Shown here: positions 7,447 to 12,906 of the stretch, piece by piece
Layout: every line of letters starts with the position of its first letter
Numbering within the stretch: position 1 is the stretch's first letter
From: Candidatus Hydrogenedens sp.
Lineage (GTDB): Bacteria; Hydrogenedentota; Hydrogenedentia; Hydrogenedentales; Hydrogenedentaceae
Direction: 5' to 3'
Length of the DNA: 64,000 bases
Assembly (NCBI GenBank): GCA_049968235.1
Contig: JBMFRC010000007.1
Location: 64,001 to 128,000 of the forward strand
Position numbers and translations under genes: made by a program
Notes under the pieces: generated by a model
The model's input: the letters and a program-made list of their open reading frames with translations, nothing else
What the model was told of the DNA's origin: nothing
The model's database searches: none

Positions 7447-8094
7447 TCAGGAAGCGTTTTGGGCAAGGATATAAAGGTAGATACATATAAAATGAGTTAA
7501 ACTTCCTCCCATAACAAATAAATGCCATATCACATGATGAAAAGGTAATCGTTCCCACAAATAGAAAATAGTTCCTCCTGTATATAAGATACCCCCAATA
7601 AGCATAAGTAATAAAGCACCGGGGGGTATCATCTGAATAGCAGGTTTAATGGCAATGATGGCTATCCAACCCATAAGTATATAAATAAAAGTAGACAGAT
7701 GGTGCCATTTTCCTATAAAGAAAATTTTAAATATAAATCCTAACAAGGTAAGTATCCAGAGGGAAGCAAAAAGTGACCAACCCCACGGTCCACGCATATA
7801 TACCAACAGAAATGGGGTATAAGTACCTGCAATTAATACATAAATACAGGCATGGTCCATAAATTGAAAAAATCCTTTTATCCTTCCCGGTGGAAAAGAA
7901 TGATACAAAGTAGAACTCAAATATAACAGGATTAAAGCAATACCAAAAGTAATAACACCGGCAAGAGTCCACGGTTCTTCTTTCTGTACTGATAATATTA
8001 ACATTACCACAAAACCTGCTATACTTAATCCGGCAGCAAGTCCATGAGTAATGGCGTGGAATACTTCTTCAGTAGTTGTATATAATTTTTTCAT
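7447..8094 (-). CDS. hemolysin III / PAQR family membrane protein
   Basis: EEVFHAITHGLAAGLSIAGFVV N-terminus and 7 TM helices typical of the Hly-III family. Confidence 0.85.
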   Translation of the reverse strand: MKKLYTTTEEVFHAITHGLAAGLSIAGFVVMLILSVQKEEPWTLAGVITFGIALILLYLSSTLYHSFPPGRIKGFFQFMDHACIYVLIAGTYTPFLLVYMRGPWGWSLFASLWILTLLGFIFKIFFIGKWHHLSTFIYILMGWIAIIAIKPAIQMIPPGALLLMLIGGILYTGGTIFYLWERLPFHHVIWHLFVMGGSLTHFICIYLYILAQNAS

Positions 8095-10950: not shown

Positions 10951-12066
10951 TTATTTAGATGGCACAGATTGTTGAAGTAATGTTAACATTTGTCTATCTA
11001 CTTTATGCCCCTCCCAATCCTCATACTCGACATCACTTCTACTCGAATCAATCGGACCAAAAGGTCCTACAAAATTCCACATTGACCAACCCCACCCTGC
11101 TTCATGGAATAAATTCAATGTATCTGCCAGCCATGCCATTACTGCCTTATGGGGTGTTTGATTAAATGCACCAAACTCTCCTACAAAAACAGGGACACCT
11201 TTATCCTCAAGAGCTTTCCATGGCTTTATTACTTGCTCACGAATACCTTCTTTGTCCCACAGAAATTCATCTTCTTTATAGGGATATTCAGGGATAGGCA
11301 CATTATCCCATACTCCTACCCACGATGCTTTATAGTGTGTAATTGCGAAGGGTTTATACATATGCAAGTTTGCAATAATCCCCAAATCAGAAAGTTCAAT
11401 CGGTGGAAAGGCTCCCCAAAATCTTCCATCACAATGAATAGGTCTTTCTTCATCTACATTACGGATAACCTCTACCAGTTTACCTATAACATTCTTATGT
11501 TTTTCTGGAGATATATTTCCAGGCTCATTCAAAAGATTAAAACTTAACTGCATGGGAGAAATATCTTTATATCGTTTTGCAAAAGTTTGCCAGTGATAAG
11601 TACAAATTTTTTGTGCTTCTTCATCATTCCACAAATTTATCGTCTCTTCAGGTTTCGCTACTGTCCAGCCCGGAGCACGGTGAAAATTCAAACAAACATG
11701 GATGTTATACTTTTTACCAAATTCAATAGTTTTGTCTATTTCCTTTAAATCCTCTTCCCGTATCTGATATAAAGATTCTTCATCGGTCCAGCACCGATAA
11801 TCCATAGGTAATCGCACAAAATTAAAGCCTAAACGATGAATAAGAGCAAATTCTTCCTCCTGAAATGGCTTTTTTCCATGAACCATAAAATAATTCAATA
11901 AATTAAAACCAAAAAATTTACCCCATATATTTTTCCCTTCATCTACTAACTTTTCATCAATCCTTTTTTCCCTTTGATTATCTACCCCACCTGATGAAAT
12001 CAATTTAGATATATGAAACATCGGATATGTAGAAAACAATTGTCTTAAAAAGGTTCTCCGCTCCAT
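10951..12066 (-). CDS. glycoside hydrolase family 5 (cellulase-like), TAT/Sec-exported
   Basis: FNFVRLPMDY, LLNEPG (acid/base), VGEFG (nucleophile). Start moved to MERRTFLRQ (complement of 12064-12066); the track's longer ORF reads through the hairpin repeat. Confidence 0.8.
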   Translation of the reverse strand: MERRTFLRQLFSTYPMFHISKLISSGGVDNQREKRIDEKLVDEGKNIWGKFFGFNLLNYFMVHGKKPFQEEEFALIHRLGFNFVRLPMDYRCWTDEESLYQIREEDLKEIDKTIEFGKKYNIHVCLNFHRAPGWTVAKPEETINLWNDEEAQKICTYHWQTFAKRYKDISPMQLSFNLLNEPGNISPEKHKNVIGKLVEVIRNVDEERPIHCDGRFWGAFPPIELSDLGIIANLHMYKPFAITHYKASWVGVWDNVPIPEYPYKEDEFLWDKEGIREQVIKPWKALEDKGVPVFVGEFGAFNQTPHKAVMAWLADTLNLFHEAGWGWSMWNFVGPFGPIDSSRSDVEYEDWEGHKVDRQMLTLLQQSVPSK

Positions 12067-12090
12067 AAAAATACCTCTAAAATTTAAAAA

Positions 12091-12122
12091 TAGCACATAG
12101 CGGAATTTTACGCTATGTGCTA
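12091..12122 (-). terminator. palindromic hairpin, 12-bp arms and 8-nt loop, followed by T-tract on the minus strand; copy 1 of an exact 39-bp direct repeat
   Basis: TAGCACATAGCG-GAATTTTA-CGCTATGTGCTA. Minus-strand reading gives hairpin then TTTTTAAATTTT. Identical copy at 12157-12188. Confidence 0.55.
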
Positions 12123-12156
12123 TCTTGATGAATGATATTAATTCAATTTTAAAAAA

Positions 12157-12188
12157 TAGCACATAGCGGAATTTTACGCTATGTGCTA
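12157..12188 (-). terminator. copy 2 of the same palindromic hairpin plus T-tract, 66 bp from copy 1
   Basis: The unit AAAAATAGCACATAGCGGAATTTTACGCTATGTGCTATC occurs at 12086-12124 and again at 12152-12190, 39/39 identical. Confidence 0.55.
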
Positions 12189-12207
12189 TCTATAAACTTT
12201 TGAATAA

Positions 12208-12330
12208 TTAATCTACGGGTTCTTTCCCTGTTAATGCAGAAAAGAAATCCGTTATAATTTTGCTTACAAAACCTACTAAATAATCAATAACTTTAACAAT
12301 GATATCTTTTAGCATTAAATTAAAATCCAT
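12208..12330 (-). CDS. small amphipathic peptide, 40 aa (MDFNLMLKDIIVKVIDYLVGFVSKIITDFFSALTGKEPVD)
   Basis: Hand-translated. Perfect SD (AAGGAGGG) 8 nt upstream of the ATG. Paralog of the adjacent 36-aa ORF. Below the ORF-track length cutoff. Confidence 0.5.
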   Translation of the reverse strand: MDFNLMLKDIIVKVIDYLVGFVSKIITDFFSALTGKEPVD

Positions 12331-12356
12331 ACTTTTACCCTCCTTTGGTTAGTTGT

Positions 12357-12467
12357 TTAGGCTGATGTTGTTAAACCAAAAAGCGCTAATAATTGGTCTG
12401 TCAGCCAACCGGCTAAAAACTTTACAAATACACTGACAATGATGTTTAGGATGTCTGCTAAAATCAT
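12357..12467 (-). CDS. small hydrophobic/amphipathic peptide, 36 aa (MILADILNIIVSVFVKFLAGWLTDQLLALFGLTTSA)
   Basis: Hand-translated. SD GAAAGGAG 7 nt upstream of the ATG. Candidate extended -10 box (TGTATAAT) about 90 nt upstream. Confidence 0.5.
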   Translation of the reverse strand: MILADILNIIVSVFVKFLAGWLTDQLLALFGLTTSA

Positions 12468-12906
12468 TACTTACTCCTTTCATGTTGTTTATTGGTACAA
12501 TAAATATAACCCCGTACATTGGAGTTATATATTTTTTATAAATATACAAGCAAAACCACCAATCGTTACACATTATACAAAAATATTATATAAAACTCAA
12601 AAAATATTTTTAAATTAAAATTCAAATAATATATGATTTTTAATCTTTTGTGTGCTAATTGCAAGTAATTTTATTCTCATTTATATACGCAAAAATTATG
12701 CCATTATACTTTTAAATATGTTGTTTAAATATTTGTGTTCAAAAATAATAATTTATGAATATATTCCCCTGAAAGTTCATATATATCTTTCCTTTTTGTA
12801 ATCATGTAGGATAAAAACAACATCTATGTATGGAACTTAGATAGAACTAACAAAGTCTTTATTTATAAATTTGTATAATATCTCTATAAACAAAAAGGAA
12901 TAAAAA

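Follow-up and report, generated by a model that had tools for sequence, protein, structure and literature searches.

What are the two very short open reading frames (ORFs) that lie in tandem between two secreted glycoside hydrolase (GH) genes of Candidatus Hydrogenedens, and what might their products do? The ORFs, here called pep1 and pep2, occupy the minus strand of a 750-nt spacer that separates a GH5 gene from a divergent GH39-like gene, within a 64,000-nt stretch of contig JBMFRC010000007.1 (positions 64,001 to 128,000; hereafter the window). A preliminary description had proposed them as a pair of similar leaderless peptides of 36 and 40 aa, and direct reading found both frames exactly as claimed (Table 1). 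Because ORFs of 25 to 60 aa are frequent in this AT-rich region, such frames are by themselves no proof of genes, and conservation has to decide. On that basis, pep1 and pep2 constitute a real, previously uncharacterised small-protein family of narrow taxonomic range. As to function, the account we tentatively put first is that of two membrane micro-proteins, leaderless, helical and abundantly expressed, that act together, with the downstream GH5 gene expressed by read-through.

The coding status of both frames was examined by pairwise Nei-Gojobori comparison of orthologues. Synonymous differences per site (pS) exceeded nonsynonymous differences per site (pN) for pep1 (pS = 0.48 to 1.1, pN = 0.03 to 0.15) as well as for pep2 (pS = 0.43 to 0.80, pN = 0.06 to 0.20), and variable alignment columns were most numerous at third codon positions (first/second/third position: pep1, 6/5/26; pep2, 19/7/31). 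Because synonymous sites are near saturation, pN is low and third positions vary in excess, the substitution pattern indicates that both ORFs are real translated genes under strong purifying selection along their whole length. The opposite view would take the region for a 5′ untranslated region (UTR) or small RNA with chance ORFs. It can call on the frequency of short ORFs in the AT-rich spacer and on a search of 15 billion predicted proteins in which the exact window pep1 did not occur. Against it stand the three-base periodicity, a pN/pS of ~0.1 in both ORFs with synonymous sites near saturation, and the fact that both frames are open in ~15 lineages, one of them of very different GC content; judged from these alignments, the noncoding reading is effectively refuted, and we give it almost no credence. 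A further ORF of 74 aa overlaps the locus in another frame (window 12349-12573, minus strand) and is also open in lineage L005 (69 aa). As a gene candidate it was rejected: the codon-position pattern follows the pep1 frame, and this ORF is probably a by-product of composition.

To determine how widely the family occurs, we combined several searches. A word-indexed search with pep2 returned four relatives of 40 aa, a combined pep1 and pep2 profile returned eleven relatives, and a HMMER scan of 1.84 billion representative proteins returned five small-ORF representatives, one of them already among the eleven; WLTGWLAD-type repeat proteins from the same scan were set aside as low-complexity artefacts. 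The total came to ~15 distinct lineages (designated by L numbers where they must be told apart) once contig look-ups were combined with scans of 185,579 species genomes and of metagenomes; only 7 of the 185,579 species representatives carry the family. The preliminary description had named conservation of the pair as the check on its proposal. The pair and its order are kept in the ~15 lineages, with the synonymous substitution pattern described above, and the lineages added by the metagenome scan all show the same arrangement. Applied to six-frame ORFs, a family hidden Markov model (HMM) found exactly one pep1 followed by one pep2 at each peptide-bearing locus, loci cut by a contig end being left out of the count, and no further copy of either gene in the 64-kb window.

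The host proved not to be Planctomycetota-like, as had been supposed; the genome is that of a Candidatus Hydrogenedens (Hydrogenedentota). NCBI lists the exact window pep2, as a hypothetical protein, under Candidatus Hydrogenedens sp., and in the nearest genome, that of Candidatus Hydrogenedens terephthalaticus, pep2 is 95% identical. The remaining low-GC carriers are Hydrogenedentota metagenome-assembled genomes, except that two were submitted as Nitrospirales with the same locus. These two, labelled "uncultured Nitrospirales bacterium" (L023 and L025; CAZZMK010000116.1 and CAZJTZ010000024.1), carry NAD synthase, the GH39-like gene, pep1, pep2 and GH5, and their labels or binning are probably wrong. 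A divergent clade of 57.6% GC (L015-L017) also carries the pair, as peptides of 39 aa (MVVLDLIFMVLKIVVDFFATWAGDELVGLIEGLFGGETA) and 37 aa (MDFSALISDIISAVVGYFIDLLSSGILDFFHALLGIE). The nearest named relative of a neighbouring gene in this high-GC clade is from a Hydrogenedentes bacterium (76% identity), followed by Phycisphaerae, so placement of the clade in Hydrogenedentota is probable rather than certain. The family appears to be restricted to Hydrogenedentota.

The mutual similarity of the two peptides, also noted in the preliminary description, is real and modest. A gapless alignment with an offset of four residues gave 31% identity and a common pattern, xLxDI...F...TD...AL.G. Profile-profile comparison with hhalign gave E = 0.0016 with a probability of only 16%. 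When pep1 and pep2 were compared against composition-preserving shuffles, P ranged from 0.001 to 0.10 within genomes and from 0.0002 to 0.0004 across clades. A common origin of the two genes is likely on this evidence.

Both peptides lack a leader and a Gly-Gly processing site, in agreement with the preliminary description, and direct reading found neither cysteine nor lipobox in them. They differ in hydrophobicity (grand average of hydropathy [GRAVY], 1.53 for pep1 and 0.72 for pep2). In the Kyte-Doolittle scale, a 19-residue window above ~1.6 suggests a membrane span; the best such window was 2.18 for pep1 (orthologues, 1.75 to 2.34) and a borderline 1.53 for pep2 (range, 1.37 to 1.74). The hydrophobic moment over an 18-residue window was 0.42 for pep1, whose mean hydrophobicity is 0.56, and 0.57 for pep2. 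From these values, pep1 is predicted to be hydrophobic enough for a membrane span and pep2 to be amphipathic. Net charge is −1 for pep1 and −2 for pep2 and runs from −1 to −5 among all family members examined, with −5 for each peptide of the high-GC clade. AlphaFold2 (AF2) modelled pep1 as one continuous helix over residues 2 to 35 (mean predicted local distance difference test [pLDDT], 88) and pep2 as one over residues 3 to 34 (pLDDT, 84) followed by a six-residue nonhelical tail; these models were built on shallow alignments of 5 to 8 sequences and show little beyond helical propensity. Along both predicted helices runs a periodic polar stripe, and this part of the preliminary description, with its hydrophobic core and periodic D/K/N residues, is supported.

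Within pep1, charged positions buried in the hydrophobic stretch are conserved (D5, K/R16, and position 24, which is acidic or polar). The hydrophilic tail of pep2, TGKEPVD, is invariant, with varying codons, in all low-GC lineages but one (L026, TGKEPEKE) and is missing from the high-GC clade. In L031 (positions 1001-1120), the pep1 stop codon TAA has become GAA, which adds four residues (ETTN) and places a new TGA over the pep2 Shine-Dalgarno (SD) site; variation at the C terminus of pep1 is evidently tolerated.

Table 1. Features of the pep1-pep2-GH5 locus, in positions of the window
Feature	Coordinates	Strand	Description and basis
Promoter (putative)	12572..12640	minus	A/T-rich block ~12640..12601; -35 TTGAGT 12600..12595; 17-nt spacer; extended -10 TGTATAAT 12579..12572
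5′-UTR stem-loop	12504..12530	minus	ATATAACTCC-N7-GGGGTTATAT; hairpin scan; ~35 nt past the inferred transcription start
pep1 Shine-Dalgarno site	12474..12481	minus	GAAAGGAG; 6 nt 5′ of ATG; direct reading
pep1 gene	12357..12467	minus	36 aa, MILADILNIIVSVFVKFLAGWLTDQLLALFGLTTSA; very hydrophobic, leaderless, single helix predicted
pep2 Shine-Dalgarno site	12338..12345	minus	AAGGAGGG; 7 nt 5′ of ATG; direct reading
pep2 gene	12208..12330	minus	40 aa, MDFNLMLKDIIVKVIDYLVGFVSKIITDFFSALTGKEPVD; amphipathic, leaderless, single helix predicted, hydrophilic tail TGKEPVD
Intrinsic terminator, copy 1	12151..12190	minus	GC-containing stem, 8-nt loop, T6; direct reading
Intrinsic terminator, copy 2	12083..12126	minus	16 pairs, 6 GC; terminator scan; ends ~17 nt before GH5 ATG
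GH5 gene	10951..12066	minus	Endoglucanase/mannanase-like; Pfam Cellulase E = 5e-28; twin-arginine signal MERRTFLRQL

The signals around the two genes point to a common transcription unit with high output. An extended -10 box had been reported ~90 nt upstream; the box is there, at ~105 nt 5′ of the pep1 ATG, as part of a candidate promoter that scored 10/12 in a consensus scan. The arrangement TTGAG(T/A)-17-TATAAT with the upstream block TTTGAATTTTAATTTAAAAATATTTTTTGAG was found in seven lineages (the window, L005, L007, L008, L019, L021, and L031). From these features we infer a near-consensus, presumably strong promoter of the sigma-70 type. The stem-loop in the putative 5′ UTR is the sole consensus element of that region in eight lineages, among which ten pairs are kept and one pair only shows a compensatory change; it may act as a stabiliser, an attenuator or a binding site. 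The initial ~25 nt of the inferred 5′ UTR (12540-12566, GTAACAATTGGTGGTTTTGTTTGTAA) are strongly conserved, also in L005, L007, L008, L019, and L021, without predicted pairing; this unpaired start could be a binding site for a protein or RNA. As the preliminary description had stated, a near-perfect SD site precedes each ORF, the second lying within the 26-nt spacer between pep1 and pep2. The AAAGGAG of the pep1 site is invariant across eight aligned lineages and the AGGAG of the pep2 site in six; conservation of the pep2 site did not extend unchanged to more distant lineages, where weaker variants occur (e.g., L022 and L025).

Downstream of pep2, the reported hairpin and T-tract terminators turned out to be two copies of one hairpin, forming a 43-nt direct repeat (98% identical, 66 nt apart). 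This duplication is limited to the lineage of the window, and all others have a single copy. Among nine sequences, compensatory changes were seen at 8 of the 12 pairs of the hairpin between pep2 and GH5, and because of this covariation we regard it as a real RNA structure; in L010, L025, and L022 the hairpin is weaker or different. In a thermodynamic fold of the window, the two terminator palindromes can pair into one long hairpin. Rfam at gathering thresholds found one tRNA elsewhere in the window and nothing at the locus. Permissive Rfam matches at the locus, to microRNA (miRNA) precursors and to the trpB motif, were below threshold and were dismissed as products of the duplicated palindrome, the miRNA-precursor matches arising because its two copies pair.

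Across lineages, the hairpin is followed by a run of six to eight T residues and, ~20 to 30 nt further on, by the start codon of GH5; this gap leaves no room for a separate GH5 promoter. The mechanically called GH5 ORF begins at GTG 12162 and passes through both terminators. Because the twin-arginine translocation (Tat) signal opens all orthologues, the true start is almost certainly, by this comparison, the ATG at 12066; annotation by the longest ORF would misplace the N terminus and mask the Tat signal. The nearest solved structures to the GH5 protein are 1vjz (Thermotoga maritima endoglucanase) and 3w0k (endomannanase/endoglucanase).

In all low-GC lineages, GH5 directly follows the pair on the same strand, with GH5 identity down to 51%. 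The 5′ flank is mostly the GH39-like gene, replaced in L010 by a gene for a Glug-repeat protein and separated in H. terephthalaticus by four inserted genes; on the 3′ side of GH5 lie either an epimerase gene and a family 2 glycosyltransferase (GT2) gene or a gene for a large Flg_new_2 protein. Because both flanks vary, pep1-pep2-GH5 is recognised as a conserved block within the low-GC clade. In the high-GC clade (L015-L017), the pair has SD sites and a terminator to itself, lacks GH5 and stands among entirely different neighbours, so it is an autonomous module and its link to GH5 is clade-wide rather than universal. A DUF6786 gene, convergent to the pair in the high-GC clade, was considered as a conserved partner and rejected, since two related loci have DUF6786 without the peptide pair. 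The inserted genes of H. terephthalaticus (L019, AWNW01000001.1, 750-7850) encode 438, 433, 540, and 419 aa and separate the GH39-like gene from the peptide promoter, two elements that adjoin in the window; relative to L019, the region just 5′ of the peptide locus thus shows an insertion/deletion polymorphism.

This layout bears on the idea that the peptides act in cis, as leader peptides that control the terminator and GH5 by attenuation or nascent-peptide arrest, with TGKEPVD as the arrest motif. The ORFs do stand directly 5′ of a conserved terminator, a separate promoter for GH5 would not fit, and TGKEPVD withstands codon variation in every low-GC lineage except L026. Selection, however, spans both peptides entirely rather than a few regulatory codons, attenuation needs no two paralogous ORFs with strong SD sites, and the pair with its own terminator persists in L015-L017 without GH5 and without TGKEPVD. 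Moreover, the terminator stem begins ~18 nt past the stop codon, a distance beyond the reach of a terminating ribosome, and the fold offered no alternative antiterminator pairing. We therefore consider a leader-peptide role distinctly improbable.

The ten neighbouring genes encode the GH5 and GH39-like hydrolases, an epimerase, GT2, NAD synthase, NAPRTase, NUDIX, HlyIII, an aminotransferase, and a glucosamine-6-phosphate isomerase-like protein. As had been stated, the flanking glycoside hydrolases are secreted: GH5 has the Tat signal and the divergent 5′ gene product, a GH39/GH42-like hydrolase, has a Sec-type N terminus. No ATP-binding cassette (ABC) transporter, immunity or peptidase gene was found among the ten neighbours, and related loci were alike in this respect. 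At a distance of 4 kb from the peptides (window 7447-8094) is the gene for a membrane protein of the haemolysin-III family (PF03006), also present in L007.

Searches of Pfam, NCBIfam, PADLOC, and PHROGs gave no significant match for either peptide; the best library matches (Vma12, E = 0.06; phrog_38566, E = 0.009) were judged to be due to chance, as was a capsid protein (E = 0.043) in a profile search against the Protein Data Bank. Viral contigs contained no relatives of the peptides, and ideas of a phage, holin or coat-protein origin were dropped for that reason. We also considered a split TatA, since the LLALFG end of pep1 resembles the TatA hinge and GH5 is a Tat substrate, and set the idea aside. 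No TatA match appeared at E ≤ 10, and pep2 is acidic, whereas the amphipathic helix of TatA is basic.

Nothing shows the peptides to be toxins or bacteriocins. A type I toxin-like, holin-like or pore-forming pair would permeabilise the membrane of its own producer under particular conditions, and small hydrophobic helical peptides without a leader would suit such a role; an oligomeric pore could be lined by their polar stripes. Strong, exposed SD sites and an apparently strong promoter fit poorly with type I toxins, in which translation is usually tightly repressed. The Rfam search found no antisense RNA or RNA family at the locus, sequence alone being unable to exclude a new one; there is no phage context or significant PHROG match, and the peptides lack the positively charged C-terminal tail typical of holins. 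These observations render a self-directed toxin or pore improbable.

The preliminary description had also likened the peptides to leaderless bacteriocins, which are active without processing. The outward resemblance is close: enterocin L50A/B, enterocin DD14, and enterocin 7A/7B likewise consist of two similar leaderless peptides of ~40 aa that are synthesised in final form from adjacent genes (PMC6131525), and pep1 and pep2 are such a tandem of 36 and 40 aa. That review describes most leaderless bacteriocins as highly cationic, and the class as much less hydrophobic, often saposin-folded, and having immunity and transport genes alongside (PMC6131525). The peptides described here are instead anionic throughout the family, pep1 is far more hydrophobic (GRAVY of 1.53, versus 0.15 to 0.69 in the rows of the review table compared here; PMC6131525), a single straight helix rather than a saposin-like fold is predicted from the shallow AF2 alignments, and the neighbourhood provides neither immunity nor ABC-transporter genes. 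Another fold of the class is an LsbB-like helix with a disordered tail; of the two models, that of pep2 has a nonhelical tail, six residues long. Furthermore, the pair occupies one conserved chromosomal position in the core genome with pN about one-tenth of pS, unlike strain-variable bacteriocin loci. The anionic charge, the missing transporter and immunity neighbours, and the fixed synteny under purifying selection speak against the bacteriocin proposal, which we regard as very improbable.

More serious, though still doubtful in our view, is a likeness to the phenol-soluble modulins (PSMs) of staphylococci. Here the peptides would be surfactant or cytolytic and would be secreted as their N-formylated primary translation products, with the exporter gene lying at another locus, and outside they would structure biofilms, promote spreading, release vesicles, kill competitors, or help to release periplasmic GH5. 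PSMs have no signal peptide, and their primary translation product is the final one (PMC5442197); in line with this, pep1 and pep2 show no leader, lipobox or Gly-Gly site, and helix is predicted from residue 2 or 3 on. Like the psm-alpha, psm-beta, delta-toxin, and PSM-mec genes, the pair comprises tandem paralogous small ORFs with their own ribosome-binding sites, lies in the core genome with no exporter gene alongside, and encodes helices with a polar stripe. The hydrophobic moment of pep2 is close to that of PSM-alpha3 (0.57 versus 0.60; PSM-beta1, 0.48), PSM-beta1 and PSM-mec are also net negative, so that pep1 and pep2 resemble PSM-beta and PSM-mec in being noncationic, and output would be very high, judging from the promoter, SD sites, and terminator. 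The N-terminal pattern MDF...SII is common to pep2 and PSM-mec, the sequence of the latter having been confirmed (PMC10886032).

These likenesses have their limits. No PSM or delta-lysin family of Pfam matched at E ≤ 10, and the best pairwise shuffle P value of 0.002 came from 45 comparisons and was not significant after correction. Melittin equalled that score, so we attribute the likeness of pep2 to PSMs to a shared helix pattern rather than to homology. The GRAVY value of pep1 exceeds that of every PSM compared (1.53 versus 0.15 to 1.10), and with a moment of 0.42 pep1 is less amphipathic than the alpha-type PSMs and delta-toxin, resembling a membrane span instead. The likeness to PSMs or delta-toxin and that to small membrane-active regulators, both named in the preliminary description, may still hold. 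Further differences from PSMs are the continuous predicted helices of 32 to 34 residues and the connection, through a terminator, to a Tat-exported glycoside hydrolase. The uncultured host, moreover, belongs to a phylum which on general grounds we presume to be two-membraned, so that a leaderless peptide would have to cross two membranes to exit. PSM export requires dedicated transporters (PMC9974410, PMC5442197). The PSM exporter Pmt is an ABC transporter encoded elsewhere, and the ten neighbours include no ABC transporter. In a bolder variant, the pair would represent membrane-active peptides of a new class, anionic, leaderless and hetero-oligomeric, whose function is coupled to the enzyme gene downstream. 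Produced in large excess over GH5, they would perturb the outer membrane or drive vesicle formation so that periplasmic GH5 reaches extracellular polysaccharide. We think this quite improbable; if true, it would amount to a PSM-like release mechanism outside the Firmicutes.

We return to the reading that we tentatively prefer, a membrane micro-protein pair retained by the cell. One promoter would give a leader of ~100 nt containing the conserved stem-loop, followed by pep1 and pep2, each translated from a strong ribosome-binding site. The strong intrinsic terminator would end most transcripts and so supply a plentiful short two-gene mRNA, while a minority of read-through transcripts would provide the Tat-exported GH5 at a low level. 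High output and limited read-through are suggested because the promoter and SD sites are conserved, the terminator covaries, and only 20 to 30 nt separate terminator and GH5. Made without leader or processing, each peptide would form one helix of ~32 to 34 residues, and both paralogues would insert into or lie on the cytoplasmic membrane of the producer, with pep1 within the bilayer and pep2 at its interface; their polar stripes may face one another. The resulting hetero-oligomeric helical complex might have a structural, channel-like or regulatory role in the envelope, as other bacterial proteins of <50 aa do. The constant pairing of one pep1 with one pep2, even in the high-GC clade, and the common length, register and motifs of the two peptides mark the pair as the unit. 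We favour a housekeeping role of peptides kept by the cell because the locus has fixed synteny beside NAD-synthesis and glycan genes, the peptides are anionic, no transporter, immunity or protease gene is nearby, and there are no links to phage. The peptides are thus probably not a secreted weapon.

Known bacterial membrane proteins of <50 aa include CydX, AcrZ, KdpF, and MgtS. In common with such proteins, the peptides are small and lack a cleavable signal, are predicted to form a single helix, and are encoded in an operon with a larger gene; pep1 matches them in hydrophobicity, and pep2 has a hydrophilic C-terminal tail like that of CydX or AcrZ. Unlike CydX-type proteins, they form a paralogous pair, they share an operon with an exported soluble hydrolase instead of with a membrane complex, charges lie inside the hydrophobic stretch without positive-inside flanks, and the expression signals are unusually strong.

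Several points weigh against a membrane micro-protein pair. A conserved Lys/Arg sits in the middle of the pep1 helix, neither peptide has the positively charged flanks that membrane anchors usually show, and pep2 alone, with its best window at 1.53, is too weakly hydrophobic for a membrane span. The AF2 alignments of 5 to 8 sequences are shallow, and nearly any peptide of such composition is modelled as a helix. The conserved link to a Tat-exported GH5 is left without explanation by a pair confined to the membrane. Finally, staphylococcal PSMs too are core-genome, leaderless, and tandem, with the exporter encoded elsewhere (PMC5442197), and some are anionic by the charges computed here; because the PSM exporter is not adjacent either, a missing neighbouring transporter does not exclude secretion.

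With these results, a candidate phylum known from metagenomes only gains a small-protein family that is verified and under strong selection. With pep1 missing from the 15-billion collection and pep2 entered merely as a hypothetical protein, the family shows how such genes escape annotation. If the peptides are envelope micro-proteins, they would be a useful but ordinary entry in a growing catalogue. Secretion or membrane activity, if borne out, would carry PSM-like biology beyond the staphylococci, and biophysical study would gain unusual anionic helical peptides. The layout itself, in which an apparently strong promoter, two micro-proteins, and a covarying terminator precede a promoterless gene for a Tat-exported GH5, makes a testable operon case and bears on how an anaerobe that degrades polysaccharides may express the genes of a single transcription unit at widely differing levels.

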